Origin: Candidatus Staskawiczbacteria bacterium
Lineage (GTDB): Bacteria > Patescibacteriota > Minisyncoccia > Minisyncoccales > Staskawiczbacteraceae
NCBI GenBank assembly: GCA_041661545.1
Contig: JBAZUH010000001.1
Coordinates: forward strand, 339,877 to 403,876
Direction of reading: 5' to 3'
DNA length: 64,000 nucleotides
In this document: positions 10,735 to 63,270 of the stretch, piece after piece
Position numbering within the stretch: position 1 is the stretch's first letter
Layout: the number at the start of each line of letters is the position of its first letter
Made by a program: the position numbers and the translations under genes
Notes under the pieces: generated by a model
Told to the model about the DNA's origin: nothing
Databases searched by the model: none
Seen by the model: only the letters and a program-made list of their open reading frames with translations

Positions 10735-10915
10735 CTAAGGCGAGGCAATAAACTCAGAGCGAGGCAATGAATTCGAAGCGTGCCCTGCAGGCAATTTTGC
10801 TTGGTCCCGCGAAGCGGGAAAATTGCCGAAGCCTGAGTGAGTTGCGCGCTGGCGCAACGAATGCTAGCGGAGAATCATTGCCGAGCGAAAATTTTATTGC
10901 CGAGCGAAAATTTAT
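10735..10915. repeat. G+C-rich structured intergenic repeat, copy E1 (GCGAGGCAAT...ATTGCCGAGCG family)
   Basis: Shares a ~125-nt core with 36239-36367 (cctgcaggcaattttgcttggtcccgcgaagcgggaaaattgccgaagcctgagtgag identical). Lies in the sod 3'UTR upstream of the terminator. Confidence 0.8.
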
Positions 10916-11535
10916 TTTTGTTCGAATCTTTTTTCTATTTCTGGCCAGTTTACAACATTCCACCAAGCTTTTAAGTAATCTGCACGTACATTTTTGTATT
11001 GCAAATAATAAGCATGTTCCCATAAATCGTTTCCCATAATTGGTTTGTGACCATCGCTAATAGGATTGTCTTGGTTTGCAGTTGAAATAATTTCTAATTC
11101 GCCAGATTTATTTTTAACCAGCCATACCCATCCAGATCCAAATCTTTTTAAGCCCTCATCATTAAATTTTTGTTGAAATTCTGCAAAGCTTCCAAATTGT
11201 TTTTCTATTTCCTCAGCTAATTTACCGCCGGGCACAAGACTGCGCCCGGTTTCGGCGGCAGGGCAAGTAATTTCCCAAAACATTGAGTGATTCACATGCC
11301 CACCGGCGTTATTTCTTACAGCTATGCGTATATCTTCGGGAATATCTTGTAAATTCATTAATAATTCTTCTGAAGATTTTTTAAATAACTCTGGATATTT
11401 CTCAATAGCTGTATTTAAATTATTAACATAAGTTGCATGATGTTTATCATGATGAAGTTTCATAATTTCTTCTGAAATATATGGCTCTAGGGCATTGTAT
11501 GCATATGGTAAATTGGGTAATATATATTTTTCCAT
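10912..11535 (-). CDS. sodA: Fe/Mn superoxide dismutase
   Basis: [36 protein letters not shown] and [18 protein letters not shown]. Confidence 0.9.
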
Positions 11536-11548
11536 AATTGTATTTTTT

Positions 11549-11740
11549 CTAATTTTCGTCTGCGCGAGAACAAGCTGGGCAATGAATTAATAAACGGCTT
11601 GCCATTTTTTCCTTTTTATCTTCACTTACTCTTGAATTACTTAACCAAATTTCAAATTCAGCTGCACATCTACTGCACTGCTCTGCATTTGTTATTATTT
11701 TTTGTTTTGCATATTTTGTTTTCATATCTTTTAGAAACAT
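11549..11740 (-). CDS. Small zinc-ribbon protein (CxxC...CxxC), function unknown
   Basis: 63 aa with CSRC and CPAC pairs. Packed 3 nt downstream of the preceding ORF. Confidence 0.5.
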
Positions 11741-11743
11741 TAG

Positions 11744-12040
11744 TTAGCAACAAGATTCGCCCGAGGGCATTTTAAATTCTTCCCTCTCGCCGTACTCTTG
11801 TTTTTTACCTTTGTGCCATTGTTGAACAGGCCTTATATAGCCTACTACCCTAGAATAAACTTCACAGGGTTGATAATTTGTTAATGCTGGGTTTTTTGCA
11901 TAACAATTATCACATTTTAAAATGTTTATTTTTTCTCCGGAGTTATCATACACTAAATAAACTCCTCCTTGTATTTCTTCGTTATTAATTGATAGTTCTT
12001 TGCCACAATCATGGCATGTATTTTCATTTTTTATTTCCAT
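11744..12040 (-). CDS. Stand-alone NrdD C-terminal-like domain (Zn ribbon plus glycyl-radical motif)
   Basis: 98 aa with CHDC...CDNC followed by YSRVVGYIRPVQQWHKGKKQEYGEREEF. Compare the E. coli NrdD C-terminus RRVCGYLG...FNAGKQEEVKRR. Confidence 0.6.
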   Translation of the reverse strand: MEIKNENTCHDCGKELSINNEEIQGGVYLVYDNSGEKINILKCDNCYAKNPALTNYQPCEVYSRVVGYIRPVQQWHKGKKQEYGEREEFKMPSGESCC

Positions 12041-12057
12041 ATTTTTTTATTATTTTT

Positions 12058-12190
12058 TAAGCGAGGCAGTTAATTTTCAGCGTATTTCAGGACACAAAGT
12101 GCCTGACCAAGCCATTTAGACGCGAAGCGTATCAATGGCGTTAGCAGAAAATTGACTGCCGAGCGATAAAAAGTTTATTACCAAGCGATA
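12058..12190. repeat. G+C-rich structured intergenic repeat, copy E3
   Basis: Outer arms gcgaggcagttaattttc / gaaaattgactgccgagcg pair with one T-G position. The interior differs from E1/E2. Confidence 0.65.
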
Positions 12191-12191
12191 A

Positions 12192-12596
12192 TTATTTACA
12201 ATTCTTGCAAGTGCCGTAAAAATTTATCTTATAACTATTTATTGAGCCGACCTTTACTTTCCTATTTCTTAAAATTGAACACCCAACACATTCATCCATT
12301 ACGTCATATACATTGCCACATTCCTCACATATAAAATGCGCATGATTAGATATATCAGCGTCAAAGTGCACTGTATCTTTAGTATCAATAACTTGAATTT
12401 CTCCCTTTTTTTTAAAATTATTTAAAACCCTATAAACAGTACCTTGGCTTATATTCGGCAATTTCTTTTTAACCTCTTTATATACAATTTCAGCCGTAGG
12501 ATGAGTTTTTACGCTCATTAGATATTTTAAAATAAAACTTTTTTGCGCTGTCATCCTTTCCCCGCTTACAACAGCAGATTTTTTTACATTTATCAT
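12192..12596 (-). CDS. fur: Fur-family (PerR/Fur-like) metalloregulator
   Basis: Winged-helix segment HPTAEIVYKEVKKKLPNISQGTVYRVLNNF, HAHFICEECGNVYDV, and C-terminal CKNC. Confidence 0.8.
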   Translation of the reverse strand: MINVKKSAVVSGERMTAQKSFILKYLMSVKTHPTAEIVYKEVKKKLPNISQGTVYRVLNNFKKKGEIQVIDTKDTVHFDADISNHAHFICEECGNVYDVMDECVGCSILRNRKVKVGSINSYKINFYGTCKNCK

Positions 12597-12669
12597 AATT
12601 TTTTTAAATATTACTATTAATAAAGACTCCTAATTAAATTATATTACTAACAAAACCCCGCGTCAAGCT

Positions 12670-13230
12670 TTACAATCTTATATATGTTGGTTCATTATTC
12701 TTATAAGTATCTAAAATTATTTCTCTTACTTGACTGGCATCTTTAGGATAAAATCTTTTTATATTTGGTAAATTTTTAAGTAAATCTTCTTCATTTTCTT
12801 TTCCCAATAAGTTATGAGACATGCCTTGAAACCTGTAATGTATATTGCCCACTGCTCCTATAAGCTTAACATTTAAATTATCATAACAAATATCGTTTCT
12901 TAACTGTTCGTAGTTCCTCATAATCACAAATGGAACCATAGAATAAACATAAGGCTTCCAACCACTTTTGGCTAATCCTGCGGCTATACCCATAAAAGAT
13001 TGCTCGGTTATTCCTGCATTAATATATTGCTTAGGATATTTTTCTTTAAAAATTTGCATATAAGAAAAACCAACATCTCCCACAATTAGAATAATTTTTT
13101 TATCTTTTTTAACCAGCTCTTCTAAGGTTTCCATAAATACTCCCCTAGAATTTCTGGCTACTTTTTCTTTTACAACTTCTCCGGGCAAACCATTTTCAAA
13201 CCCAGGAAGTGATGATAAATTATCTTTCAT
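12670..13230 (-). CDS. Transketolase-like, pyrimidine-binding (C-terminal) subunit, short form
   Basis: GITEQSFMGIAAGLAKSGWKPYVYS. At 186 aa it appears to lack the usual C-terminal domain. Overlaps the upstream subunit by 11 nt. Confidence 0.7.
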   Translation of the reverse strand: MKDNLSSLPGFENGLPGEVVKEKVARNSRGVFMETLEELVKKDKKIILIVGDVGFSYMQIFKEKYPKQYINAGITEQSFMGIAAGLAKSGWKPYVYSMVPFVIMRNYEQLRNDICYDNLNVKLIGAVGNIHYRFQGMSHNLLGKENEEDLLKNLPNIKRFYPKDASQVREIILDTYKNNEPTYIRL

Positions 13231-14020
13231 TTAATTCTTTTAATGCTTTAATATAATTTTCTTTGTCTATGTTTTTATAATGCCACTCTAATTTTTTTTC
13301 AAAAAATGAAACCCCCTTACCCTTAACTGTTCTAGCAATAATAACTAAAGGTTTTTTTCTTGCACTGCTAAAACTATAATTTATTGCTTTTTCTATTTCT
13401 TTATAATCATGACCATTTATTTCAATTACATCCCAATTAAAAGCTTTCCATTTATCAACTAATGGTTCCATATTTAAAACTTCTTTCGTGGCGCCCATAG
13501 CTTGAAAGTTATTACAGTCTACAATAACAGTTAAATTATTAAGTTTGTGTTGAGCAGCTAAAGCTGCTGACTCCCAGGTAGTTCCACAATCTAGCTCTCC
13601 GTCAGACATTAACACATATGTTTTCCATTTTTCTTCTGATAATTTGGCTGCCAAAGCCATGCCCAATGCTATAGGAAGCCCATGCCCCATAGCTCCTCCG
13701 GCAACTTCTACTCCTCTAATATCTGGTTCAGCCAAACCTATATACTTAGATCCTGGCCTAGCATATGTTTCTAAATCTTCTTTAGGAATAACTCCTTTTT
13801 TAGACAAAAAATAATATAAAGAAGCCGCTGCCCACCCCTTAGATAAAAGGAATCTATCTCTATCTTTGCTAAGATTTTTGTCTATATTTAATTTAGAAAA
13901 TAAAACTGACAAAACATCAATGCAAGAAAAATTTGACCCAATATGAGAAGCTCCAGATAAGTGCACCATTTCTAAAACTTTTTTACGAGCATCATTGGCA
14001 ATTTTTTTATAATCTTTCAT
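13220..14020 (-). CDS. Transketolase-like, thiamine-diphosphate-binding (N-terminal) subunit
   Basis: SGASHIGSNFSCIDVLSVLF, GHGLPIALGMA, and MSDGELDCGTTWESAALAAQHKLNNL. Confidence 0.8.
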   Translation of the reverse strand: MKDYKKIANDARKKVLEMVHLSGASHIGSNFSCIDVLSVLFSKLNIDKNLSKDRDRFLLSKGWAAASLYYFLSKKGVIPKEDLETYARPGSKYIGLAEPDIRGVEVAGGAMGHGLPIALGMALAAKLSEEKWKTYVLMSDGELDCGTTWESAALAAQHKLNNLTVIVDCNNFQAMGATKEVLNMEPLVDKWKAFNWDVIEINGHDYKEIEKAINYSFSSARKKPLVIIARTVKGKGVSFFEKKLEWHYKNIDKENYIKALKELNER

Positions 14021-14030
14021 ATAATTAGTC

Positions 14031-14543
14031 CTATCTAACTATTAATATTCCTATTTGACCTTTCATTCTGTGGTAGCCGTTTCCAACACTACAATAAAAT
14101 TCAAAAGTTCCTTTTTTGTCTGCTGTAAACTCAATTGTATCGCTTTCACCCGTTTTTATTGTTTTTGTTCCAATGCCACCAAAATCAACAAACATTAAAT
14201 TATGAGTTCCGCCGGCATTGGTAAAAATAATTTTTACTTTATCTCCTTGCTTAACTGATATTTCATTTGGAGCAAAATAAAAACTTCCGCCAACAATATT
14301 AAATGTTAAATTAGTTGGTTCGTGGTCATTAATTCCCAGTTTCAACTGAGCTGATTGCTCTGCAGTTAAATCTGCGGGGATATGAGGTTTCATAAAGTCT
14401 TCTTCTATTACTACTGGTTGTTGATTTGTATTATTCTCCAATGAACTTATTTGTTTTTGACTTCCTCCATTAACTAACAAAAAAACAATAGCCACTAGCA
14501 AAAGTGCGATAATGCCCAGCGATATTTTATTTACTTTTTCCAT
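14031..14543 (-). CDS. Membrane-anchored cupredoxin (plastocyanin/azurin-like blue copper protein)
   Basis: N-terminal TM segment. Type-1 Cu ligand pattern: H(NLMF)...CSVGNGYHRMKG. Confidence 0.7.
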   Translation of the reverse strand: MEKVNKISLGIIALLLVAIVFLLVNGGSQKQISSLENNTNQQPVVIEEDFMKPHIPADLTAEQSAQLKLGINDHEPTNLTFNIVGGSFYFAPNEISVKQGDKVKIIFTNAGGTHNLMFVDFGGIGTKTIKTGESDTIEFTADKKGTFEFYCSVGNGYHRMKGQIGILIVR

Positions 14544-14721
14544 ATTTTTATATATTTATTAATTTTATTAATGATAATAATTACTAATTAGATTATATTA
14601 TTATTAAATAACCCTGTCAACCCAACGCTTAATAAAGTTATTCACAGTTGACTGAGTTCCTTATTAATAATAAAATTATATTATCCTTAATAATAACAAT
14701 TATCAACTAAGAATAAATACT

Positions 14722-17247
14722 ATGGAAATTTACGTAACAAAAAGAGACGGCTCAAAAGAAATTTTTGATGCTAACAGAATTAACAAATCTATTGAAAGAG
14801 CTTGTTTTGGATTAGATGATCCTATAAGCAAGGTTGTACAAATTGCTTCAGAAACTCAACTAATGCTTTACAACGGAATAACAACCGAAGAACTAGATTT
14901 TGCAACAATAAATTCTGCTCTACAAAATATTCAAGAAGATACTTCTTATGACAAAGTAGCCACTCGCCTACTTTTAAAAACTGTATATAAAAGAATTTTC
15001 GGGGATTATGGGGAAAATAACAATATTCTTGAAGAAAAATATAAAAAATATTTTGTAGAACACATAAAAAATAATGTTGAGTTGCAAATTTTAGACAAAA
15101 GAATGATAGAGAAGTTTAATTTAGAAGAATTATCAAATTCGCTAAATATTAAAAAAGATGAACTTTTTAAGTACGCAGGCGCGTCAACTCTATTTAATAG
15201 ATATTCAATAAAAGATAGCGAACAAAAACCAATTGAAACTCCCCAGTATTTTTTTATGAGAGTTGCTATGGGCCTTTCATATAACGAAGACAACCCAACC
15301 AAATGGGCTATAGAATTTTATAATAAAATGTCTAACTTAGAATATATAGCCGGAGGGTCTACTAATATTGGAGCTGGAACAACAAGACCAGCTTTATCAA
15401 ATTGTTTTTTATTAGAAATTCAAGATGATATAGAGAATATAGCAAAATCAGTTTCTGATGTAATCAAAATATCTAAATCAACCGGAGGAATTGGGGCCTC
15501 TATTACTAAACTAAGAGCTAGTGGCTCTCCTTTGTCTTCTAACAACACCACCTCATCTGGGCCAACTCCTTTTGCAAAAATCATAGATACTGCTATTAGA
15601 GCTATACAAAGAGGTGGCAAGAAAAAAGGAGCTTTATGTTTTTATATGGAAAATTGGCACATTGATTTTCCAGATTTTTTAATGTGGAAACATAACGCCG
15701 GAGATGATTATCTAAGAATGCGCACTGCCGATACTGCTGTGTTTATATCAGACGAATTTATGAAGCGAGTTAAAAATAAAGACAACTGGTATATGTTTGA
15801 CCCAAAAGAAACTCCCGACTTAAACGAATTATATGGAAAAGCATTTTCAAAAAGATATGTAGAATATATAGAAATGGCTGAAGCTGGAAAATTAAGGGTT
15901 TTTTCAAAAGCACCAGCAGAAGAACAATATAGACAAATTCTTGTAATGCTTCAAGCAACATCACACCCTTGGCTCACATTTAAAGATCCTATTAATGTAA
16001 GGGCTTTAAATAACAATACAGGAACCATTCATATGTCTAACCTTTGCACCGAAATATGCTTGCCCCAAGACAAAGATAATATTGCTGTATGCAATTTAGC
16101 ATCAATAAATATTTCAGCCCACATAGAAAATGCAAAGGTAAACTGGAAAAAATTAGAACAAACAGTAAGGCTATCTGTAAGACAATTAGACAATTTAATA
16201 GATATAAACTTACTACCTATACCAGAAGCTGTAAAATCTGACATAGAAAATAGGGCTATTGGATTGGGAGTTATGGGTTTTTCTGAAGCAGTAGAATTGC
16301 TTAAACTAGGCTATGAAGATGAAGAAACTTTTGAATTAGCTGATAAAATATTTGAATTTATAAGTTATTTTGCCATAGATGAAAGCGCAAATTTGGCTAC
16401 AGCTAGAGGCAGTTATAAAAATTTTCCTGGTTCTGGTTGGTCAAAAGGAAAAGTTCCTTTTGATACAATATCTGATTTAGAAAATGAAAGAGGAGAAAAA
16501 TTAGAATTAGACAAAACAAGCCATGCTACAGAATTAGGATTAGATTGGCAAGAACTAAGAAGAAAAGTTCAAAAAGGAATGAGAAACGCCACTCTTATGG
16601 CTGTAGCGCCCAATGCAAACATTGGATTATTAGCAGGCACTACTCCGGGAATTGACCCTAGGTTTGCCCAAGTATTTTCAAGAAATAAAATATCCGGAAA
16701 ATATTTAGACATAAACCATAATTTAGTTAAAGAATTAAAAGAAATTAAAATATGGGACGAAGTTAAAAAAGAAATTATAGAAAAACAAGGAGATATTTTA
16801 GATATCGAAAAAATACCAGAAAATATCAAAAAAAGATACAAATCTGCTTTTACAACCTCGCCCTATGCTTTTATAGAAATTGCCGCCCGTGCCCAAAAAT
16901 GGGTTGACCAAGCATTATCGCGTAATATGTATTTAGAAACAAGAATTACCGAAGAAATTATGGATATTTATTCAAATGCATGGAAAAAAGGACTAAAAAC
17001 TACTTATTACTTACATATGAAACCTAGGCACACAGCCGAGCAAAGCACTGTGTCTATAAATAAAAGAGAGAAAATGGGAAGAGTAGGTTTTTCCGCCTTC
17101 GCTACGGCTTCCGCCGACGCTAAAGCTTTGGCGGACAAGGGCTCTGTTGAAGATGAGGCTGAATATGAAGCTATCATGGCTAAAGTTTCTGCTACTCGTG
17201 GGCCAGAAGACCCACAAGAAAAGTTTTTATGCGACAGTTGTCAGTAA
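14722..17247 (+). CDS. nrdA: Ribonucleoside-diphosphate reductase alpha subunit (class Ia, ATP-cone)
   Basis: ATP-cone at the N-terminus (YVTKRDGSKEIFDANRINKSIERAC), active-site NLCTEI, and a C-terminal CDSC tail. Confidence 0.9.
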   Translation: MEIYVTKRDGSKEIFDANRINKSIERACFGLDDPISKVVQIASETQLMLYNGITTEELDFATINSALQNIQEDTSYDKVATRLLLKTVYKRIFGDYGENNNILEEKYKKYFVEHIKNNVELQILDKRMIEKFNLEELSNSLNIKKDELFKYAGASTLFNRYSIKDSEQKPIETPQYFFMRVAMGLSYNEDNPTKWAIEFYNKMSNLEYIAGGSTNIGAGTTRPALSNCFLLEIQDDIENIAKSVSDVIKISKSTGGIGASITKLRASGSPLSSNNTTSSGPTPFAKIIDTAIRAIQRGGKKKGALCFYMENWHIDFPDFLMWKHNAGDDYLRMRTADTAVFISDEFMKRVKNKDNWYMFDPKETPDLNELYGKAFSKRYVEYIEMAEAGKLRVFSKAPAEEQYRQILVMLQATSHPWLTFKDPINVRALNNNTGTIHMSNLCTEICLPQDKDNIAVCNLASINISAHIENAKVNWKKLEQTVRLSVRQLDNLIDINLLPIPEAVKSDIENRAIGLGVMGFSEAVELLKLGYEDEETFELADKIFEFISYFAIDESANLATARGSYKNFPGSGWSKGKVPFDTISDLENERGEKLELDKTSHATELGLDWQELRRKVQKGMRNATLMAVAPNANIGLLAGTTPGIDPRFAQVFSRNKISGKYLDINHNLVKELKEIKIWDEVKKEIIEKQGDILDIEKIPENIKKRYKSAFTTSPYAFIEIAARAQKWVDQALSRNMYLETRITEEIMDIYSNAWKKGLKTTYYLHMKPRHTAEQSTVSINKREKMGRVGFSAFATASADAKALADKGSVEDEAEYEAIMAKVSATRGPEDPQEKFLCDSCQ

Positions 17248-17269
17248 AAAATATTAATTACAAAAAATT

Positions 17270-18295: not shown

Positions 18296-18296
18296 T

Positions 18297-18325
18297 CAAA
18301 AAACACTCCTCAGGAGTGTTTTTTG
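18297..18325. terminator. Bidirectional intrinsic terminator between nrdB and tgt
   Basis: aaaaaacactcctcaggagtgttttttg: an 8-bp stem flanked by an A-run and a T-run. Confidence 0.75.
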
Positions 18326-18327
18326 AT

Positions 18328-19524
18328 TTAGATTTCGCCTTTTTTTATTTTTTCGCGTATATTTTCTACAAAAGTATTGAAATAATATAAGTTGTGGAAA
18401 GTTAAAAGCTTCATGCCGGTTATTTCGCCTGCTTTTAACAAATGGCAAATATAATCTTTTTTATAATTCAAACAAACATCACAAACACAACCTTTATCTA
18501 AAGGCTCATTTTTATTTAAAAACTTTGTTTGTTTTAAATTTAATTTTCCTTGAGAAGTAAAAGCAATCCCTCGTCTTGCATAATGCGTTGGAACAGTACA
18601 ATCAAAAGTATCGGCACCAGATTTTATAATTGACTCCATATCTTCTAAATAACCTACTCCTAAAAGATGCCTTGGTTTTTTTTCTGGCAATTCGTCTACC
18701 ACCCAGCCTATCATTTCTCCCATTTTCTTTTTATCATTTCCAAATTCTCCGCCAATTCCAAATCCATCAAAGTCCATAGCACCAATTGTTTTGGCGCTTT
18801 CAATTCTTAAATCTTTAAATTTAGACCCCTGAACAATTCCATACAAAGCTTGCTTGGATTTTTTAGCTTTCAAGCAAATTTCTGCCCATTTATGAGTTTT
18901 TTCTAAAGATTTTTTAACATAATCATATTCTGCTAAGGGAGCTGTGCATTCATCAAAAGCAAAAATAATATCTGCCCCTATTTTCTCCTGTATTTTAATA
19001 GATTCTTTGGGGCCAATAAATAATTCATCTCCATTTATTGGCGAACGAAAAATTACCCCGTCGTTATTTATTTTTATTTGCTTTGGCTGTGTACCTGCAC
19101 TAATTGAGCGAGGCAATAAATTTTTTTGAGACGAATGGGCACCGTCAGCAGACGGGTTGAGACGAGAAAAAATTTGATTGCCGAGCGCTAATTTACTACC
19201 CAATCCGTAGTCTGTACCAAAGCCCAAAGAAAAAACCTGATAGCCACCGGAATCTGTCATTAGGGGCTTTTTCCAATTCATAAATTTATGAATTTTACCG
19301 GCTTTTTCTACAATTTTCTCGCCCGGTTTTAAATGTAAATGAAATGTATTAGAAATTAAAATTTGTGATTTTGTTGCTTCTACTTCTTTGCTTTCTAAGG
19401 TTTTTATAACTGCTTGTGTTGCAACCGGAACTAAACACGGCGTTTCAACAACACCGTGCTCTGTTTCTAAAAATCCCAACCTCGCCCTGCTTTTATTAGA
19501 TTTTTTTAATATCTTAAAATTCAT
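18328..19524 (-). CDS. tgt: tRNA-guanine transglycosylase (queuine tRNA-ribosyltransferase) carrying an internal repeat-derived insertion
   Basis: TPCLVPVATQAVIKT, TDSGGYQVFSLG, FAFDECT, and Zn-site CVCDVC...H. There is an extra ~45 aa between GGYQVFSLG and VIFRSPINGD. Confidence 0.9.
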   Translation of the reverse strand: MNFKILKKSNKSRARLGFLETEHGVVETPCLVPVATQAVIKTLESKEVEATKSQILISNTFHLHLKPGEKIVEKAGKIHKFMNWKKPLMTDSGGYQVFSLGFGTDYGLGSKLALGNQIFSRLNPSADGAHSSQKNLLPRSISAGTQPKQIKINNDGVIFRSPINGDELFIGPKESIKIQEKIGADIIFAFDECTAPLAEYDYVKKSLEKTHKWAEICLKAKKSKQALYGIVQGSKFKDLRIESAKTIGAMDFDGFGIGGEFGNDKKKMGEMIGWVVDELPEKKPRHLLGVGYLEDMESIIKSGADTFDCTVPTHYARRGIAFTSQGKLNLKQTKFLNKNEPLDKGCVCDVCLNYKKDYICHLLKAGEITGMKLLTFHNLYYFNTFVENIREKIKKGEI

Positions 19525-34748: not shown

Positions 34749-36214
<1,466 letters not shown>

Positions 36215-36238: not shown

Positions 36239-36367
36239 AGCGAGGCAGTGAATTCGTAGCGTACCCTGCAGGCAATTTTGCTTGGTCCCGCGAAGCGGGA
36301 AAATTGCCGAAGCCTGAGTGAGCCCGCGCTGGCGGGCGAACGCTAGCGAAGAATCACTGGCGAGCGA
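36239..36367. repeat. G+C-rich structured intergenic repeat, copy E2 (between atpG and atpD)
   Basis: Near-identical core to E1. Differences are paired: ggcaAtgaattc/gaatcaTtgcc in E1 versus ggcaGtgaattc/gaatcaCtggc in E2, and ttgcgcgctggcgcaa versus cccgcgctggcggg. Confidence 0.8.
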
Positions 36368-37330
36368 TTAAGAAAGTGCTTCCGCACCAGCACTAATTTC
36401 TGAAATTTCTGTGGTAATTTTACTTTGTCGTGATTTGTTATATTGTAAATTTAAATTATTTCCTAAGTCAGAAGCATTGTCACTTGCCGTTTTCATGGCC
36501 ATACGTCTTGCTGAATGTTCACTTGCATTAGCTTCTAATATTAAATGGTAAACTTGTATAAAAAATAAATGTTTTGCTAATTTATTTAAAACCTCTTCTG
36601 CTGACGGCTCAATTAAAAAGTCTTTAGAATTGGCTTTGTTAGGCACAAAATTTATATTATGCTCTTTAATTAAATCAGCAAACTTTCCGCGTTCTGGAAT
36701 AATTTCTTTAACTGTGTCGGCTATATGATCAAAATCAATTGGTAAAATTCTTCTTACGTGAGTTTCTTGTTTTAAGGCACTTCTAAAATGAGTTGATACT
36801 ACAACAACCCTATCCCAGCTCTCATTTATATATCCATCTACTAAAAAATCTACTATTGGGTGAATTTGCTCTGTGGTTGTATAGTCACCCACTGATACAA
36901 ACTTTTTAACAACGTTAAAATTTTTCTTTGATAAATAATTAAATGCTTTTTCTCCTACAGCCATATATATATGTTCTTCCCTTGTCGCGCCAGAACCTTT
37001 GGCAGAGGCAGGGTATTCTTTTTGATGTTGTTCAAACTTTCTAAAAACAGAACTATTAAATGCACCAGCCAACCCTTTATCTGAAGAAACTAAAACAAAT
37101 AAAACTTTTTTTACATTTCTTTTATTAAATAATTCCGGCAATTTTGCAGAATCCAAACTAGATATTGTTGCCAAAAAATCAAGTGCCGCAAAAGCATAGG
37201 GCCTGCTGGCAAGTGCTATCTCCTGCGATTTACGCATTTTGGTAGCAGCCACCATTTCCATGGCCTTTGTAATTTTATTTATGTTAGAAACGCTTTTTAA
37301 ACGCTTCTTAATATTCTGCGGTGATTCCAT
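36368..37330 (-). CDS. atpG: F1 ATP synthase gamma subunit
   Basis: IKKRLKSVSNINKITKAMEMVAATKMRK and the C-terminal ITTEISEISAGAEAL. Confidence 0.9.
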   Translation of the reverse strand: MESPQNIKKRLKSVSNINKITKAMEMVAATKMRKSQEIALASRPYAFAALDFLATISSLDSAKLPELFNKRNVKKVLFVLVSSDKGLAGAFNSSVFRKFEQHQKEYPASAKGSGATREEHIYMAVGEKAFNYLSKKNFNVVKKFVSVGDYTTTEQIHPIVDFLVDGYINESWDRVVVVSTHFRSALKQETHVRRILPIDFDHIADTVKEIIPERGKFADLIKEHNINFVPNKANSKDFLIEPSAEEVLNKLAKHLFFIQVYHLILEANASEHSARRMAMKTASDNASDLGNNLNLQYNKSRQSKITTEISEISAGAEALS

Positions 37331-49446: not shown

Positions 49447-50763
49447 ATGACGACCATGAAGAACCAACCGACAACCATGAAAACAAGGCTATGTTTCCTC
49501 AATGTACAACCCCACTGCCTTTTGGTGGGACAACCCGGCGGCTTCGCAACGGCAGAAGACTTCCACCGGTTCGCCGCCGAATGCGGGTTCACGGGCATCA
49601 CCATGCCCACCGGATTCGTGGACATCGATCAGGCCATTTCCAGCTCGTCATACCGGGACGATTTCCAAGCAAACCTGATCGGCTGTGGCCTCACCGACGG
49701 TTTGGTGCGGATGGAAATGCACGTGGACGGCCAAAATGTCTGCGTGGCGCCCTACCGGGTCAAGCGCACGGGGCACTTCGTGAGCCCCGACTTCGCCACC
49801 ACGAATGTGGCGAACATGGAAGGCCTGGCCAAGGACAATTTGTTCAAGGCCATCGATGCATCGGCCGCCTTCGGGTTCAAATACTTGCCCGGTTTCTGCG
49901 GTGGACGCGGGTTCGCTGCCGCCATGGCAAAATGGCCGGCATGGCCCAAGCATCTCCCAGCGTGGGTGATGGGGTTGCTGGCTCTCAAGTGGCAACCAAT
50001 CCTGGAATATGCAGCCGACAGGGGCGTGACCATCACATTCGAATTCGGTCACCCCGAAAACGACCTGCTAACCGGCGCCAACTTCGTGCTCTTCTACAGC
50101 ATGCTGTCGGACAAAGCCAAACTTGGTGTTGGCATCAACGCAGATGCCTCGCACTTCCTCAACATCGGCATCAACCCGATGCCTCACCTGGACAAGGCCG
50201 CCGAAACCGGTTGCAAATTTACTAACCATTTCAAGTGGGGCGCTTCGGTGGACCGGGGGGATGGCACTGCCTCCACTTACGGCGGGTGGACCAACTGGTC
50301 GCAATCGTCCACGACGTTCTTCACCTTCGCCACTGTGGGGCCCGACTGGCTCGCCCGCGAGTTCTACGAGTTCCTCCTGGCGATGACCAGGAAACAGGGC
50401 GACGAATGCTTCGACGTTGTTTATGAAGGCGAAGATGCCACCATCATCAACCCCAAGCAAGCCATGCAGATTGGTGCCGCCAACTGTCGTGCAGCCATCA
50501 CCGGCGATCGCTTTATCAAGCTGAACGGCGTTGTGGACGAGGAAGATTTCGTTATGACCACTCCGATGGAGGTGAACGATGTCGCACTCTATTTCCCCGG
50601 CGGACGTTTGCTGGAACTTGAATCCTGGGCCGGCGGACCCTTTGACCAGGCCTTTGATAGCCCGCTCAAGCCCTATGATCTGCTCGAAATGGACTGCCAT
50701 GAAGTCACGGCTTGCCGGCAGTTGCTAGCTGACACCGGCCACGAAGCCGAAGCAGAGGCGTGA
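49447..50763 (+). CDS. Island D: xylose-isomerase-like TIM-barrel (sugar phosphate isomerase/epimerase superfamily) protein, 438 aa, strongly G+C-rich
   Basis: ITFEFGHPENDLL and GINADASHF resemble the metal-ligand strands of the AP-endonuclease-2/xylose-isomerase-like fold. A hand count gives 39/60 G+C at 49561-49620 versus 16/60 at 49141-49200. Confidence 0.6.
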   Translation: MTTMKNQPTTMKTRLCFLNVQPHCLLVGQPGGFATAEDFHRFAAECGFTGITMPTGFVDIDQAISSSSYRDDFQANLIGCGLTDGLVRMEMHVDGQNVCVAPYRVKRTGHFVSPDFATTNVANMEGLAKDNLFKAIDASAAFGFKYLPGFCGGRGFAAAMAKWPAWPKHLPAWVMGLLALKWQPILEYAADRGVTITFEFGHPENDLLTGANFVLFYSMLSDKAKLGVGINADASHFLNIGINPMPHLDKAAETGCKFTNHFKWGASVDRGDGTASTYGGWTNWSQSSTTFFTFATVGPDWLAREFYEFLLAMTRKQGDECFDVVYEGEDATIINPKQAMQIGAANCRAAITGDRFIKLNGVVDEEDFVMTTPMEVNDVALYFPGGRLLELESWAGGPFDQAFDSPLKPYDLLEMDCHEVTACRQLLADTGHEAEAEA

Positions 50764-50789
50764 CCACGCTCGCTGCTCAACAAACCCAA

Positions 50790-50825
50790 GCCTGGGGAAC
50801 ACGATGTTCCCTGGGCACTTTTTTT
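50790..50825 (+). terminator. Strong intrinsic terminator of island D
   Basis: gcctggggaaca-cga-tgttccctgggc forms a 12-bp stem including G-U pairs, followed by ac and ttttttt. Confidence 0.75.
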
Positions 50826-53207: not shown

Positions 53208-53253
53208 CAAAAAAAGTCGCGTTTTTGACGGCCGTCAAAAACGCGACTTTTTT
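53208..53253. terminator. Perfect palindromic bidirectional terminator, copy 1
   Basis: aaaaaaaGTCGCGTTTTTGACGGCCGTCAAAAACGCGACtttttt. A 30-nt core is repeated at 61172-61207. Confidence 0.75.
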
Positions 53254-54507: not shown

Positions 54508-54619
54508 TATTAATCAATGATAGAAATAATTTAGTATAGTAGGAACAGGATTCCTTGCTATTGAAATTTCGCCGAAAGCGAAACAACTTTGTTGCCAAAC
54601 TACCAACTAATCGAACACC

Positions 54620-54805: not shown

Positions 54806-54829
54806 AGCTAAAAAGCTGCAACAGTCTTT

Positions 54830-54861
54830 AACCGCAGGTTTCACCTCGCGGTTCTTTTTTT
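54830..54861 (+). terminator. Intrinsic terminator of island F
   Basis: aaccgcaggtttcacctcgcggtt followed by a T-run. Confidence 0.65.
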
Positions 54862-54896
54862 GAGCGCGTAATATAACTTCATTAAACGCGCGAAAC
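54862..54896 (+). promoter_or_regulatory. GAGCG-hairpin-CGAAAC motif, copy 3
   Basis: tttttttGAGCGCG-taatataacttcattaaa-CGCGCGAAAC. Confidence 0.55.
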
Positions 54897-54948
54897 CTCG
54901 CCGAAGCGGGATGCCCTTTGGACCGCGAAGGCGGGTGCATGTAGTGAT

Positions 54949-54977
54949 TTGACATTTTGGGAATTTTAGGATATAAT
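54949..54977 (+). promoter_or_regulatory. Perfect consensus promoter upstream of the DEAD-box helicase gene
   Basis: TTGACA at 54949-54954, a 17-nt spacer, and TATAAT at 54972-54977. Confidence 0.65.
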
Positions 54978-55150
54978 AAATATACTCTGAGTTGTGAAAT
55001 GGATTAAAAACGATTTATTTAGTTTTTGAGCGAAACGAAGCAAAAATTTTGAGGCATACACGTCGTGTTCTGTCGATAAATTTTTGCAAAGTCGCAGCCG
55101 AAAACGAAACGTAAAGAGTTAAATCTATTTCATAATTCAGAGTATTCAAA

Positions 55151-57644: not shown

Positions 57645-57705
57645 AATTGTATATTTTTTAATAAAATAGTAAAATTAAAAAATATATTTCACTAAAAATA
57701 AAAAC

Positions 57706-59082: not shown

Positions 59083-59260
59083 AAAAATATAGTAAAGTAA
59101 AATTTAAACATTACCACTTGTATATTTTGATATAGGTGCTATAATGTAATAGTAAGTTTCTTATTGTTTTCGTAAGGTTAGTAAGCCTGAAGAAAGATAA
59201 GAGGATAGGTTCACTCGAACCTGTGGTCGGCTTACTAATATTAAAATAACATATAAGAAA

Positions 59261-59584
59261 ATGGCAAAGAAATTATACGTAGGCGGATTGTCATACGGCA
59301 CATCCGAAGCTACATTAAGGTCAACATTCGAACAAGCAGGAACAGTTGAATCTGCAACAATCATCATAGATAAGATGACAAACAGATCAAAAGGTTTTGG
59401 CTTTGTAGAAATGTCTACAGACGAAGAAGCTCAAAAAGCTATTGAATTGTTTAACGGAAAAGAATTAGAAGGAAGAAATCTTACCGTAAACGAAGCCAAA
59501 CCAATGGAACCAAGAGCTCCAAGAACCGGAGGAGGATTCGGTGGAGGAAGCAGAGGTGGATTTGGTGGCGGAAACAGATACTAA
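59261..59584 (+). CDS. RRM-type RNA-binding protein with a Gly/Arg-rich tail
   Basis: RNP2 LYVGGL, RNP1 KGFGFVEM, and a GGFGGGSRGGFGGGNRY tail. Confidence 0.9.
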   Translation: MAKKLYVGGLSYGTSEATLRSTFEQAGTVESATIIIDKMTNRSKGFGFVEMSTDEEAQKAIELFNGKELEGRNLTVNEAKPMEPRAPRTGGGFGGGSRGGFGGGNRY

Positions 59585-59640
59585 TCCTGCGAAGCTTAGG
59601 ATAATCCTGAGCTAGTCGAAGGATATTCAGTTATCATTAG

Positions 59641-59671
59641 AAAAACTACCCCGTAAAAAGGGTAGTTTTTT
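59641..59671 (+). terminator. Intrinsic terminator after the RRM gene
   Basis: aaaaactaccccgtaaaaagggtagtttttt. Confidence 0.75.
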
Positions 59672-59775
59672 GTTACACAACAAGCTTGACATTATAATTA
59701 AATTATGATAAAAGCAATTTAGCAAAGCGAGTAGCACTTACTCGCCCTTTACAATCAAACCAACCACCTACCAAT

Positions 59776-59994
59776 ATGTTCTACACCCCTCTTTATCGTT
59801 GTAACCAGTGCGGTTCAATTCAGTTGCGCACTCCCATAGAAGCGGAAAATGTTGTGCAGCTTGAGGAGAAATTGCCATCAATTCCGCGAATCATCATCCA
59901 TCGCTGTACATGGATTGGTTGCACTACTAAACCCTCAGGAACTTTGGGAGTTTGCGAACTCATTGCATTCCAACCCGAAGACCTCAAAGACTAA
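59776..59994 (+). CDS. Island G protein G1 (72 aa, Cys-containing, possible zinc ribbon)
   Basis: CNQCGS...HRCTWIGC. TTGACA lies at 59686-59691 upstream, and the leader is CA-rich (aaccaaccacctaccaatATG). Confidence 0.5.
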   Translation: MFYTPLYRCNQCGSIQLRTPIEAENVVQLEEKLPSIPRIIIHRCTWIGCTTKPSGTLGVCELIAFQPEDLKD

Positions 59995-60020
59995 CTACCA
60001 ACCCCGTCAAACCAACCGAA

Positions 60021-60296
60021 ATGAAAATAATTATTCTTTCGCTGATATTGAATTCTGTCAGCGCAGTTTTCGCGCTGACCCATGGCTACATTGCCTGGGC
60101 AGTGTGGTTTGAATTATTCACCATTTTATCGGCGGTGGTTCTGATAAACGCAATCTTTGCGCGTTATTCTAAGAAAGCTCGACCCCGCATTACGTACCTA
60201 AAATCATGTGCTTTGGCTCTGTATTCGTTCTTGGGATCTCTGAGCCTAATTGCCTTCTGGGCCATGATCGCATGGCGAGCATGGCACGCGATGTAG
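60021..60296 (+). CDS. Island G membrane protein G2 (91 aa, three TM helices)
   Basis: MKIIILSLILNSVSAVFALTHGYIAWAVWFELFTILSAVVLINAIF... This is an internal ATG of the track ORF 59952..60296, preceded by caaaccaaccgaa. Confidence 0.5.
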   Translation: MKIIILSLILNSVSAVFALTHGYIAWAVWFELFTILSAVVLINAIFARYSKKARPRITYLKSCALALYSFLGSLSLIAFWAMIAWRAWHAM

Positions 60297-60315
60297 AACC
60301 AAACCAACTAAACCG

Positions 60316-60450
60316 ATGAACTTCAAATTCTGGGTCATCATTGGCGTCTGTGCGATTATTGCATGGACATGCGTCGCGTGGTACAGCAACCAAGACCCCC
60401 GGCGCAAGCAACTCAATCCTCCGGAAACCGAAAACACGACCACGCCATGA
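60316..60450 (+). CDS. Island G micro-membrane protein G3 (44 aa)
   Basis: MNFKFWVIIGVCAIIAWTCVAWYSNQDPRRKQLNPPETENTTTP. Its stop overlaps the G4 start (ATGA). Below the track cutoff. Confidence 0.4.
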   Translation: MNFKFWVIIGVCAIIAWTCVAWYSNQDPRRKQLNPPETENTTTP

Positions 60451-60944
60451 GACCAACGAAAACCATGCATTGCAATACATGCGGAGAAACATTTCAAATA
60501 AGGGAGGGCGAAAGTTGCATGTGTCCCTTCTGCCTTGGAGTCAGAAGGCAAAAAACGTTCATAACTGAACCGACCAAAACCTTGGAAACCACGATTAAAA
60601 TTCTGTTTGTCATTTTTGCTATTGTTGCTGCCATTGCTACTGGCGTCGTCGAAGGTTCCAGAGAAAGATCGTCAACGGCATACCAGTTTAAATGGGTGAA
60701 TGATGATAAAGGATGGGAAATCTCCGACCCTGACAGTCTTCCCCAGTCAATCACCAGTCCTTATGGATTCCTCCATGGGTGGGTAACTTATGGAAGATCG
60801 CACACCCTAGTAATCCCGCACTCATGGTTCGGCGACAAGGAGGTCCGCGTCCATTTCTGGGACAACACTCCCAAACAAGTGCAAGCGGAAATCGTGGACG
60901 AAATACCTGAATGGTTGGAAACCGAAACCACGACCACGCCATGA
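60447..60944 (+). CDS. Island G protein G4 (165 aa: zinc ribbon + TM + extracytoplasmic domain)
   Basis: CNTCGETF...CPFC, then the TM segment ILFVIFAIVAAIATGVV. Ends ETETTTTP on the same 28-nt junction sequence as G3. Confidence 0.5.
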   Translation: MRPTKTMHCNTCGETFQIREGESCMCPFCLGVRRQKTFITEPTKTLETTIKILFVIFAIVAAIATGVVEGSRERSSTAYQFKWVNDDKGWEISDPDSLPQSITSPYGFLHGWVTYGRSHTLVIPHSWFGDKEVRVHFWDNTPKQVQAEIVDEIPEWLETETTTTP

Positions 60945-61120
60945 AAAAGCTACCAGATACCGACAAAACGTTAGCCAAATTCTTCCTAGGATTATCCGAC
61001 GAACAAATCGGGCAATTCGTGCGCAGAATTCTTACCGGGAAAAAGCCGAAGGCCGAAAAAATACGGCCACGCAAAAAAGGCTCGAGAAAACCCAAAACCA
61101 AAAGAGGCAAACCCCTCTAA
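60941..61120 (+). CDS. Island G basic protein G5 (59 aa)
   Basis: MKKLPDTDKTLAKFFLGLSDEQIGQFVRRILTGKKPKAEKIRPRKKGSRKPKTKRGKPL. ATGA-coupled to G4. Confidence 0.45.
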   Translation: MKKLPDTDKTLAKFFLGLSDEQIGQFVRRILTGKKPKAEKIRPRKKGSRKPKTKRGKPL

Positions 61121-61171
61121 CATGCCAAAGTTAATTCTGCGGCTCTTTTTTTGCATAAGCATCCGCAAAAA

Positions 61172-61207
61172 TAGTAGCGTTTTTGACGGCCGTCAAAAAC
61201 GCGACTA
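61172..61207. terminator. Palindromic bidirectional terminator, copy 2
   Basis: tagtaGCGTTTTTGACGGCCGTCAAAAACGCgacta. The core is identical to 53216-53247. Confidence 0.7.
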
Positions 61208-61243
61208 TTTTTGAGGGATGCATAAATGTTTCCTTAATACTCT

Positions 61244-61272
61244 TTGACATTACGCAAATTTTAGCGTATAAT
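61244..61272 (+). promoter_or_regulatory. Perfect consensus promoter of typA
   Basis: TTGACA at 61244-61249, a 17-nt spacer, and TATAAT at 61267-61272. Confidence 0.65.
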
Positions 61273-61303
61273 TATTGTTATTATATACGACTATACATAA
61301 TAA

Positions 61304-63133
61304 ATGGAAAACATAAGAAACATTGCTATTATTGCTCACGTTGACCATGGAAAAACCACACTAGTGGACGCGCTTTTGCGTCAAAGTAAAACTGAAATGA
61401 AAAAAGAAGTGGCTGCTCAAGAAATGATAATGGACAGCAACGAGCTAGAAAGAGAAAGAGGAATTACAATTTTCTCTAAAAATGCTTCTGTGCAATACAA
61501 TGGAGTAAAAATAAATATTATTGACACTCCCGGTCACGCGGATTTTGGCGGTGAAGTTGAAAGAGTTTTAAATATGGCCGATGGATGCTTACTTTTAATT
61601 GATGCAAAAGAGGGCCCAATGCCTCAAACAAGATTTGTTTTAAAAAAGGCTTTAGAAATGGGCCATAAAATTATTGTTGTTGTAAATAAAATTGATAAAC
61701 CAGGTGCCAGAGCAGAATTTGCATTAGAGGCAACCTTTGAATTATTTTTAGAATTAGGAGCTGGTGACCACAGTTTAGATTTTCCTGTTTTATATGCTTC
61801 TGGTAGAGATGGAAAAGCAGGCCTTGAAGCTGATTTGTCAAAAATGACAGATATTACTCCTGTTTTTGAAGCAATTGTAGAACACATTCCCTCACCTATT
61901 GCTGACATAAATAAACCATTGCAAATGTTAGTTACTTCTATTGCTCCAGATGACTTTAAAGGTAGAATTGCAATTGGAAGAATTCACAATGGAGTTATGA
62001 AAAATGGACAAGAAATTGTTCATATAAATAGAGAAGGAGTTTCTGTAAAAAGTAAAATAACTTCTTTAATGACTTTTGCAGGATTAGGCAGAATTGAAAC
62101 AGCAGAAACAAAAGCCGGAGATATTGTAGCAATTGCTGGAATTGAAGATGTGACTATTGGAGAAACAATTGCCGACCCAAATAGTCCAGAAGCATTGCCA
62201 GTGATTAACATAGACGAACCAACTGTAAAAATGACTTTTATGGTTAACGACTCCCCTTTTGCCGGAAAAGAAGGCGAATTTTCTACAACAAGACAAATTA
62301 GACAAAGATTATTTAAAGAGTTAGAAACAGATGTTTCTTTAAAAGTTGAAGAAAATGATAAAAACCAATGGATTGTTTGTGGCAGAGGAGAATTACATTT
62401 AGCTATTTTAATTGAAAGAATGAGACGAGAAGGTTTTGAATTTCAAGTTTCAAGACCACAAGTTATTTTACGTGAAATAAATGGAAAAACAATGACTCCC
62501 TATGAAAAAATATTTATTGAAGTGCCCGAGCAATATCAAGGAGTTGTAATGCAAAAAATGGGAGTAAGACGGGGTGAATTAAAAGAAATGAGAAACCACA
62601 ATGGAATTTCTTTTTTAGAATTTATAATTCCAACAAGAGGATTGTTTGGATATAGAAACGAATTTTTAACAGATACAAAAGGTTTGGGAATAATTAATAC
62701 TATATTTTTTGAATATATGCCTGATTTGGGCAACTGGAAAGAAAGAGACAATGGTTCTTTAATTTCTACTGAAACCGGAGAAACAAGATTATATGGTTTA
62801 AAAAATGTTCAAGACAGGGGAGTATTATTTATTGGGCCAGCTGTAACAGTTTATGAAGGCCAAGTTGTAGGACAAAACTCAAGACCAAATGATATAAGAG
62901 TAAATGTTTGTAGAGAAAAACAACTTTCTAATATGAGATCTAAGGGAGAAAAAAATAGAGAGCACTTTAATGTTCCAAAATTAATGAATTTAGAAGATTC
63001 TTTAGAATATATTGGAGATGACGAACTTGTAGAAGTAACACCAAAAAATATTAGAATTAGAAAAATGCACTTAAAAGAAGTTGATGCCAAGCGTGCCGAA
63101 AGATCTGAGGCCGGCGTAAAATTCGACTACTAA
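61304..63133 (+). CDS. typA: Translational GTPase TypA/BipA
   Basis: IAIIAHVDHGKTTLVDALL, DTPGHADFGGEVER, and NKIDK. Length is 609 aa. Confidence 0.95.
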   Translation: MENIRNIAIIAHVDHGKTTLVDALLRQSKTEMKKEVAAQEMIMDSNELERERGITIFSKNASVQYNGVKINIIDTPGHADFGGEVERVLNMADGCLLLIDAKEGPMPQTRFVLKKALEMGHKIIVVVNKIDKPGARAEFALEATFELFLELGAGDHSLDFPVLYASGRDGKAGLEADLSKMTDITPVFEAIVEHIPSPIADINKPLQMLVTSIAPDDFKGRIAIGRIHNGVMKNGQEIVHINREGVSVKSKITSLMTFAGLGRIETAETKAGDIVAIAGIEDVTIGETIADPNSPEALPVINIDEPTVKMTFMVNDSPFAGKEGEFSTTRQIRQRLFKELETDVSLKVEENDKNQWIVCGRGELHLAILIERMRREGFEFQVSRPQVILREINGKTMTPYEKIFIEVPEQYQGVVMQKMGVRRGELKEMRNHNGISFLEFIIPTRGLFGYRNEFLTDTKGLGIINTIFFEYMPDLGNWKERDNGSLISTETGETRLYGLKNVQDRGVLFIGPAVTVYEGQVVGQNSRPNDIRVNVCREKQLSNMRSKGEKNREHFNVPKLMNLEDSLEYIGDDELVEVTPKNIRIRKMHLKEVDAKRAERSEAGVKFDY

Positions 63134-63270
63134 AATAATCGCTCGGCAACAAACTTTTATTTTCGCTCGCCAAATCAAATTTTTGCTCGTCGGGGGAATG
63201 TCCCCAAGGCGATTGCCCCTCCTCCAAAAATTTATTTGGCTCGCTACAATAGTTTATTGCCTCACTTTAA
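63134..63270. repeat. G+C-rich structured repeat, copy E4 (inverted relative to E1-E3; in the typA 3'UTR)
   Basis: Begins aatcgctcggcaacaaac and ends gtttattgcctcac, which are the family arms in reverse orientation. Confidence 0.65.

Follow-up and report, generated by a model that had tools for sequence, protein, structure and literature searches.

Several kinds of small, hairpin-forming DNA elements are known in bacteria. The ends of IS200/IS605 single-strand transposons are distinct subterminal hairpins, with a fixed 4-5 nt target, no duplication and an orientation tied to the lagging-strand template, the template that the insertion of IS608 favours. Integron attC sites carry R''/R' boxes (RYYYAAC ... 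GTTRRRY) and belong to promoterless cassette arrays next to intI. The Rickettsia palindromic elements (RPEs), reportedly described by Ogata and colleagues in 2000, are said to form in-frame insertions in protein genes, and the YPALs, as De Gregorio and colleagues reportedly observed in 2006, to insert close behind stop codons; some YPAL, ERIC and repetitive extragenic palindrome (REP) sequences have been shown to act as stabiliser or processing hairpins of mRNA. REPs sensu stricto are imperfect palindromes of 20-40 bp with a GTAG or CGTC tetranucleotide at one end, which lie near the 3' ends of open reading frames (ORFs), supply stop codons, contain G-T pairs and have in-frame intragenic copies, and the mismatches of their hairpins are required for cleavage by the REP-associated tyrosine transposase, RAYT (PMC3733652). 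The palindromic family dealt with here was found in a 64,000-nt stretch of DNA (the window) from a genome of Candidatus Staskawiczbacteria, i.e., of the Candidate Phyla Radiation (CPR) or Patescibacteria, with 34% GC; previously undescribed in this lineage and apparently mobile, it behaves as known kinds of repeats do. A full-text literature search returned no paper linking CPR/Patescibacteria with RAYT, REPIN or MITE terms (the last for miniature inverted-repeat transposable elements).

The family consists of palindromes that relatives have gained and lost, that nest in one another, show biases of position and orientation, and are tolerated in frame within genes. Its members are likely to be non-autonomous mobile DNA repeats moved in trans as a folded single strand, most plausibly by a HUH Y1 transposase of the RAYT/TIRYT type. 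The initial annotation of the window had listed five copies (E1 to E5, Table 1), all of which were located at the positions given there, at counts above chance: the right-end motif ANTGCCGAGCG (at most one mismatch) was observed 7 times for 1.18 expected, a number reached by 0/100 shuffles, and the left-end motif GCGAGGCANT gave 5 exact matches, every one in elements. These five copies are one real, structured repeat family. As announced, E1 and E2 have a nearly identical core, 57 nt being common to both, and the substitutions that set them apart are paired, in the outer stem (CAAT/ATTG vs CAGT/ACTG) as well as in the inner hairpin (TTGCGC..GCGCAA vs CCCGC..GCGGG), the E2 handle containing a single G.G mismatch (ACTGGCGAGCG); relative to them, E3, E4 and the tgt copy retain only the ends, with different interiors. 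The comparison was extended to ~990 kb (~1 Mb) of related DNA, namely the window, genome loci rich in A+T and, from metagenomes, 80 loci around tgt, where labels such as L142, L157 or L328 designate individual loci 8-21 kb long.

Common to every copy is 5'-(A)GCGA-GGCA(A/G)T ... A(T/C)TGCC-GAGC-G(A)-3'. Once folded, these ends form a handle composed of two G-C pairs (the GC clamp), a symmetric 2x2 CGAG/CGAG loop and then a long A/U-rich stem, the loop being a tandem G.A on the strand that reads GCGAGG first and C.T/T.C on the opposite strand. The consensus, for which 53 left and 52 right arms were used, gives conserved arms of ~20 nt, i.e., AGCGAGGCAAT-R-AA-Y-TTTTT and AAAAA-K-TT-N-ATTGCCGAGCG-A, with an A at position -1 in 51 of the 53 left arms. 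The two ends are not exact complements and differ consistently at two positions (GA vs TC). Among 41 distinct arm pairs, GCGA/GAGC is uniform, but detection demanded no more than one mismatch to it, whereas the stem of the handle covaries, with GGCAAT/ATTGCC turned into GCCAAT/ATTGGC, AGCAAT/ATTGCT, GGTAAT/ATTACC or GGCAGT/ACTGCC, that is, G-C to A-T or C-G and A-T to G-C. Between the arms lies an interchangeable G+C-rich hairpin core, whose types recur across different genomes and are unrelated to each other: type A comprises E1, E2 and, more distantly, E3, type B measures ~91-97 nt, and type C, which E5 resembles, ~77-84 nt. Covariation is also strong in type B: over the 32 pairs of an alignment of 10 B-type members, 96.5% of cells are paired and 9 pairs are changed on both sides, against 3.3 in shuffles (0/500 as high) and 1-4 in controls with slid positions.

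Elements range in size from 35 nt, for the smallest hairpin (in L256), to 170 nt, and concentric nesting is frequent, in layouts with two left arms followed by two right arms (LLRR), as in both E1 and E4, or with one left and two right arms (LRR), as made by E3 with its extra right arm and also found in L143, L169 and L192. E1 further contains a third handle-like hairpin (GCAGGCAATTTTG...AAAATTGCCGAAGC, 10787-10832) as well as a CGCGAAGCG mini-hairpin, and in some copies the module is doubled, AGCGAGCGAGG...CCGAGCGAGCT (L147, L156).

Sites occupied in one genome are commonly vacant in another. Among orthologues, the end of the superoxide dismutase (SOD) gene is filled in 1 case and empty in ~20, and that of the Fur gene filled in 1 and empty in ~35, where detection may overlook degenerate remnants, for example TCGCTCGCC immediately after the Fur stop codon of L301. 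The atpG end bears an A-type element in the window and a B-type in L190, and is empty in eleven relatives; L297 and L300 are filled where L287 is empty despite a 97% identical C-terminus; and L328, the closest relative obtained (Tgt 86% identical), is without E1 and E3 and has retained the tgt copy. Near-identical copies also stand at separate loci of one genome (L157:4419 vs L157:6807, and likewise L156 vs L179). One copy is met every ~2-13 kb across the window and the sampled element-rich loci (L142/L145, L157), and density varies from ~15 complete copies in ~750 kb of tgt loci to five in 8 kb of L157. The initial annotation had left open the choice between an antisense RNA, a DNA cruciform and a MITE/REP-like mobile element. 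It is the last that is favoured, because sites are mostly empty or differently cored in relatives, near-identical copies occur within a genome, elements are nested, and in-frame copies exist in three genes.

The constancy of orientation relative to genes, already remarked upon for the window (5/5 copies), was borne out over the ~1 Mb, since the GCGAGG-first strand is antisense to the adjacent gene in 41/44 complete copies (93%; binomial p ~2e-9, a value overstated, like the other p-values here, by the shared ancestry of the copies). Read on the gene strand, the CGCTCGG end lies 0-6 nt past the stop codon, with a mode of 3, and this tight gap persists where the next called gene is 100-1700 nt off. 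The true exceptions in orientation (L159, L170 and L301) still abut the stop codon, by the opposite end, and the element supplies the stop codon in L170 and L301. Proteins encoded upstream of elements are full length compared with their orthologues, and truncation of genes by the element was rejected as their C-termini agree. None of the ~38 correctly oriented copies follows a gene on the minority strand of its locus, though 20% of genes are minority-strand (P ~2.5e-4); because of this, orientation may track the direction of replication rather than the neighbouring gene, which is a hint only given loci of 8-21 kb. In the window, the GC skew merely follows the gene strand, and no DnaA match was obtained among the proteins scanned near the strand switch at ~42 kb. 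A bacterial RNase P RNA was recognised in L157 (6965-7398), at a distance of 76 nt from an element, with 88 bits, under the Rfam gathering score of 100; some of the long spacers found downstream of elements thus contain RNA genes that lack annotation.

Inside genes, copies are translated. The one in tgt had been placed correctly, but it is more than a matter of location, as it constitutes a translated in-frame insertion: residues 102-150 of Tgt, the E5 region, align to just 3 residues of solved Tgt structures, and E5 is thus predicted to encode a surface-loop insertion absent from them. Most Tgt relatives are 380 aa long and read GSKILKKEQERGES at the place of GSKLALGN...LLPRS in the window; their "empty" 24-aa loop folds at about -0.3 to -10 kcal/mol in most alleles, as opposed to -25 to -53 kcal/mol in expanded alleles. 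The tgt site holds a B-type core in L236 and L243 and an E5/C-like core in the window, L328, L248, L251 and L265; the copies of L248 and L265 have different, fully Watson-Crick handles, and the orthologous copy of L328 shows a U-A to C-G double change. In MnmA, B-type elements in two reading frames and a C-type element occur at one nucleotide position after GHYAR, and an IscS-like gene contains a short in-frame copy. All in-gene copies are in the gene-sense orientation, which offers a mean of ~1.6 open frames per element vs 0.9. Because one site holds different core types in different genomes, occupied sites seem to be re-invaded or replaced, consistent with nesting. As such, the family adds 10-40 residues to conserved enzymes (Tgt, MnmA and the IscS-like protein) and is a concrete source of lineage-specific protein insertions in Patescibacteria. 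The Tgt loop of L289, L284, L310, L282 and L292 carries other strongly folding insertions, of 33-43 aa and up to -52 kcal/mol, which encode unrelated peptides and have no recognisable handle, so that the loop appears as a hot spot for several palindromic element families.

Regarding the mechanism, the folded handle with its invariant mismatch would be what a trans-acting enzyme working on single-stranded DNA recognises and cleaves; among HUH Y1 transposases, which are abundantly encoded in the lineage, those of the RAYT/TIRYT type are the most plausible candidates. If insertion into single-stranded DNA were strand-specific, both the orientation bias and the lack of target duplications would be accounted for; selection would then purge insertions unless they fell right behind a stop codon, within an older copy or in a tolerant loop; and copies that are cotranscribed may take on a secondary role as mRNA 3' hairpins. 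The search for target-site duplications disclosed no 4-6 nt direct repeat above permuted flanks (the best 3-mer was observed 7 times for 2 expected), which is consistent with single-stranded transposition. Insertion into pre-existing hairpins was rejected, the complementarity of the flanks being just weakly above permutation (z ~-1.9).

The strand acted upon is a less straightforward matter. The T-G positions had been assigned to the GCGAGG-first strand, which holds for E3, E4 and the arms of the family, with 32 wobble pairs on that strand vs 7 on the mRNA-sense strand, but fails for the cores, with 31 vs 65, and the argument drawn from it does not generalise. Whole elements of the window fold 3-12 kcal/mol better on the GCGAGG-first strand, where C(GAA)G loops recur, UNCG loops being found on the mRNA-sense strand; with handle loops removed, no overall strand preference persists (G.U 66 vs 78). 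One possibility for the split between arms and cores is a DNA-level constraint on the arms together with a deamination bias or an RNA-level constraint on the cores. The sole universal strand-specific feature is the CGAG/CGAG (G.A) mismatch of the handle.

Candidate enzymes abound. Among 8000 candidates scored, at least 6338 Y1_Tnp homologues were obtained at E<=1e-5, the named ones being mostly from Staskawiczbacteria or Parcubacteria, and the RAYT-like genes sampled are each flanked by inverted hairpin repeats in a REPtron-like manner. In the 990 kb searched for arms, two Y1_Tnp genes were found, L275:11176-11892 (PF01797, E 1.9e-9) and L286:15147-15845, both with other flanking hairpins, and none in the window. 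One hairpin copy of L286 lies in frame within the transposase gene itself. Some ~190 nt upstream of the Y1_Tnp gene of L322 (~3790-3840), a perfect hairpin, GCCTCGCATAATATAC-TTTC-GTATATTATGCGAGGC, terminates in the same GCGAGGC heptamer as the handle and is followed by a second G+C-rich hairpin. In L316-L321, the RAYT-like gene comes immediately after a reverse-transcriptase gene, which is full length in L320 (340 aa) and paired there with a bAvd gene, in the fashion of a diversity-generating retroelement, and called at just 171 aa in L316-L319 and L321.

Several points weigh against transposition by such an enzyme. No transposase gene is flanked by AGCGAGGCAAT arms in ~1 Mb, and all five RAYT-like genes inspected (L275, L286, L316, L322 and L330), namely the two above and three further homologues (P0176, P0144 and P0189), are flanked by non-handle hairpins (Table 1), P0238 having nothing handle-like alongside. 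As regards an autonomous partner, apart from neighbouring complete elements there is no ORF between a left and a right arm spaced 0.26-6 kb. Comparison of filled with empty sites did not delimit the exact ends or the target site, relatives sharing ~77-82% DNA identity with spacers that are not alignable. Were the lagging-strand template preferred, as it is by IS608, activity would fall to the mRNA-sense strand; arm wobbles and the G.A handle favour the other. The orientation bias may be linked to replication or to transcription, and the tight post-stop spacing and the upkeep of in-gene hairpins over long divergence could instead reflect a host function.

The latter alternative, i.e., that the elements are host-beneficial cis-acting structures of the mRNA (stabilisers in 3' untranslated regions (UTRs) or between cistrons, processing or insulator hairpins tuning the upstream gene) for which mobility was merely the route of arrival, is unlikely. 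In its favour, cotranscription follows from copies lying 0-6 nt past stop codons and upstream of terminators, orientation relative to genes is constant in 41/44 cases, the wobble pairs of the cores favour the mRNA-sense strand (65 vs 31), on which B and C cores have UUCG, UACG or UGCG loops, and hairpin stability is preserved in old in-gene copies; REPs beside 3' ends have been proposed as RNA elements as well (PMC3733652). No gene depends on the element, however, as most orthologous genes of relatives do without it, and one and the same gene end bears unrelated cores in different genomes; on the sense strand, the handle contains a U.C/C.U mismatch and the arm wobbles become A.C (32 vs 7); and copies within coding sequences or nested in others make no sense as 3' stabilisers, nor does Rfam give a match.

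It is similarly doubtful that the handle is the substrate of an undescribed CPR mobilisation system with a distinct mechanism, other than a RAYT/REP look-alike, inserting strand-specifically near stop codons and into existing copies, the cores being swapped as cassettes; if true, this system could be a general source of lineage-specific protein insertions in Patescibacteria. Quite improbable is an attC-like role, in which the elements would fold from one strand into recombination sites of the integron kind and a tyrosine recombinase acting on the bottom strand would exchange genes or cores as cassettes. The geometry is alike (an imperfect palindrome of ~35-170 nt after the stop of an ORF, with conserved ends, a variable centre, a conserved unpaired feature and one orientation), runs of gene-element-gene-element occur (4-5 over the 8 kb of L157, and four within the initial 4.5 kb of L142) and cores replace each other at one site, but the ends are GGCAAT/ATTGCC instead of the R boxes RYYYAAC/GTTRRRY, whose absence led to rejecting an attC identity, the flanks are housekeeping genes in conserved order (atpG-atpD, SOD, typA, Fur), the element alone rather than gene plus element is variably present, in-frame in-gene copies occur, and no integrase was seen among the window proteins scanned. 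Least credible of all is transcription of the GCGAGG-first strand into small antisense RNAs or structured non-coding RNAs of another kind, from genes which the 3-12 kcal/mol of better folding, the stable tandem G.A present only there, the recurrent C(GAA)G loops and the arm wobbles would suit, but for which flanks of 1-6 nt and 15-40 nt or ORF interiors, hence in-gene and intercistronic copies, leave no promoter room, the hairpin and T-run at 63269-63300 also reading (by eye) on the minus strand just upstream of E4 antisense-wise, the strand preference vanishing without handles (66 vs 78), cores being mutually unrelated, sites of relatives empty and Rfam without match.

As an origin for the mobile repeats, a known insertion-sequence, plasmid or phage fragment was also considered and rejected, since E1 gave no blastn match in 72,556 plasmids or 50,697 phages; in IMG/VR, a loose two-end pattern yielded 120 matches, none with a stem extending past the pattern, and the strict arm pattern 0. 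With respect to known RNAs, Rfam at gathering score reported 3 tRNAs only in the window, and at E<=5 no match overlapped an element in five element-rich loci, so that no family was matched on elements. A hammerhead ribozyme has a CUGANGA ... GAAA core with an A15.1-U16.1 pair; the A-type junction, CUGAGUGAG...CGAAC/U, is similar, but this identity was rejected for one extra base, a C or U at A15.1, the missing A15.1-U16.1 pair and the lack of an Rfam match. Across 185,579 species genomes scanned with a two-ended pattern, the genuine matches among those listed (A+T-rich, with extended stems) all lie in CPR assemblies, mostly Staskawiczbacteria, a few being records under the label Patescibacteria group, "uncultured bacterium" or Saccharibacteria, and the others were dismissed as chance matches in G+C-rich genomes; among the matches listed, the family is confined to Candidatus Staskawiczbacteria plus a small number of related Patescibacteria.

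The genomes of CPR/Patescibacteria, which are tiny, are generally regarded as poor in mobile DNA. The occupancy of sites offers polymorphic markers for strain tracking in metagenomes, and the strict post-stop placement with 93% of copies in one orientation a good system for separating replication, transcription and selection in the orientation of small repeats. Elements may also complicate assembly or gene calling by creating spurious antisense ORFs; E1 generates two such ORFs of ~90 aa, at 10754-11023 (minus) and 10767-11039 (plus), which overlap the end of the SOD gene.

Table 1. Copies of the repeat family, accompanying hairpins and hairpins next to Y1_Tnp genes (window coordinates unless a locus is named)
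Feature	Position	Strand	Description
E1, outer element	10740..10906	+	Ends GCGAGGCAAT ... ATTGCCGAGCG; fold -72 kcal/mol; 5 nt past the stop of the Fe/Mn SOD gene (10912-11535, minus; Sod_Fe_N/Sod_Fe_C domain matches), antisense to it
E1, inner element	10759..10887	+	Complete A-type copy, concentric within the outer arms; A-type relatives L142:434-562, L145:5141-5251, L256
Terminator-like hairpin + T-run	10690..10713	-	Downstream of E1 on the gene strand
E3	12061..12165	+	A-superfamily variant between the Fur gene (12192-12596, minus) and an NrdD-like 98-aa gene (11744-12040, minus); close relatives L142:1979-2083 and L146:1496-1602
Degenerate additional right arm outside E3	12177..12187	+	ATTACCAAGCG; nhmmer right-arm match 12168-12191, 11.6 bits; stops 4 nt from the Fur stop codon (E3 gap 4 nt)
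E5, in tgt (18328-19524, minus)	19108..19187	+	Translated in frame as ...LALGNQIFSRLNPSADGAHSSQKNLLPRS...
E2	36240..36366	+	A-type, in the spacer between atpG (36368-37330, minus) and atpD (34832-36202, minus); 1 nt past the atpG stop; AtpG C-terminus full length
E4, outer element	63140..63265	-	GTGAGGCAAT ... GTTGCCGAGCG on the minus strand; 6 nt past the typA/bipA stop codon (61304-63133, plus)
E4, inner element	63164..63244	-	Covarying handle GCGAGCCAAAT ... ATTTGGCGAGCG; this handle variant recurs in L169:6615 and L301:5164
Hairpin ACCACA..TGTGGT + T-run	63269..63300	+	Directly after E4; terminator-like on both strands, by eye
Hairpins flanking Y1_Tnp	L275 (11143-11951), L322, L330		(T)TAGAGGCCCG(A/T)CCTCTA(A)
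Hairpins flanking Y1_Tnp	L316		TGGAGGACGGGCCTCCA
Hairpins flanking Y1_Tnp	L286:15030-15900		AAACTCAGACGTTTAACGTCTGAGTTT

The terminator-like hairpin downstream of E1 places this copy within the SOD 3'UTR, that following E4 was unflagged by the terminator scan, its 10-nt loop exceeding the 3-8 nt limit of the scan, and E2 and E3 are intercistronic, inside operons, all of which agrees with the initial annotation in that intergenic copies lie in transcribed spacers or 3'UTRs. For the same reasons, i.e., separate terminator-like hairpins after E1 and E4 and the location of E2 and E3 inside operons, the elements were rejected as intrinsic terminators themselves. Elsewhere in the window, a loop-less palindrome is present in two copies in A/T-rich context, perfect at 53210-53253 and 93% complementary at 61163-61216, with GCGTTTTTGACGG|CCGTCAAAAACGCGAC in common, and has the look of another family of small repeats or of bidirectional terminators that are shared. 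At the left edge of the window, 1-5745 (minus), what seems devoid of ORFs is the 3' part of a giant gene running off the window; it encodes no fewer than 1915 aa, probably of a surface protein, in which LamG-like, fibronectin type III and DUF2341 domains are repeated. A G+C-rich island at 49483-50825, reaching ~72% GC in this 34% GC genome, contains many overlapping antisense ORFs, and the ORF at 49447-50763 (plus; 438 aa) has a weak xylose-isomerase-like TIM-barrel match alone and the look of a foreign gene.

Set against known systems, the family resembles integron attC sites in being folded imperfect palindromes directly 3' of ORFs, with conserved ends, a variable centre and constant orientation, but lacks the R-box consensus and cassette arrays, varies as an element alone, has in-gene copies and comes with no integrase seen. 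The failure to detect a duplication and the strand bias would fit the ends of IS200/IS605 single-strand transposons. Like REPs and REPINs, with their RAYT (Y1 HUH) transposases, and the TIR families with TIRYTs, the elements are imperfect palindromes whose conserved mismatches matter, mostly next to ORF 3' ends, sometimes supplying the stop codon, with G-T pairs, in-frame intragenic copies and a patchy distribution among relatives, and, as for REPINs, they are long hairpins of similar size (PMC3733652, PMC3337134). The family ends are nonetheless AGCGAGG and CCGAGCGA, without GTAG or CGTC tag, so that they fall outside the strict REP definition, GTAG being restricted to some B and C core loops, where it is variable; unlike in a REPIN, the arms are not themselves small palindromes and the element is therefore no doublet of two REPs. 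A REPIN/REPtron system combines two inverted REPs with a cognate single-copy RAYT gene that the same repeats flank; the RAYT-like genes sampled in the lineage bear hairpins other than the handle. MITEs such as YPAL, ERIC, Correia/NEMIS and the Coxiella QMITEs, are also non-coding elements of ~70-170 bp with terminal inverted repeats of 15-30 bp (PMC2759123, PMC10969869, PMC5896051), cotranscribed with the upstream gene, folding into RNA hairpins, polymorphic in presence and occasionally intragenic; the ~20-nt arms found here are complementary except at the GA/GA positions, and presence/absence polymorphism exists at orthologous sites. The family differs in that a search for target-site duplications detected none, its ends are unlike each other (GA vs TC), its orientation bias is strong and no insertion sequence is known as its parent.

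Behaviour is shared with the RPEs as well (background taken in part from PMC3733652): both are short palindromes of a small A+T-rich genome, with several families coexisting and no known transposase, placed between genes and in frame within genes of functional proteins, to which they add a loop peptide, as do the in-frame copies of Tgt, MnmA and the IscS-like protein, absent from orthologues. There is no sequence similarity and the phylum is different, hence a resemblance in behaviour and not membership, and the present family stands apart by one shared handle around interchangeable cores, frequent concentric nesting, 93% of copies in one orientation and a position 0-6 nt after stop codons. 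Even so, the parallel suggests that reduced, A+T-rich genomes have repeatedly been colonised in the same way.

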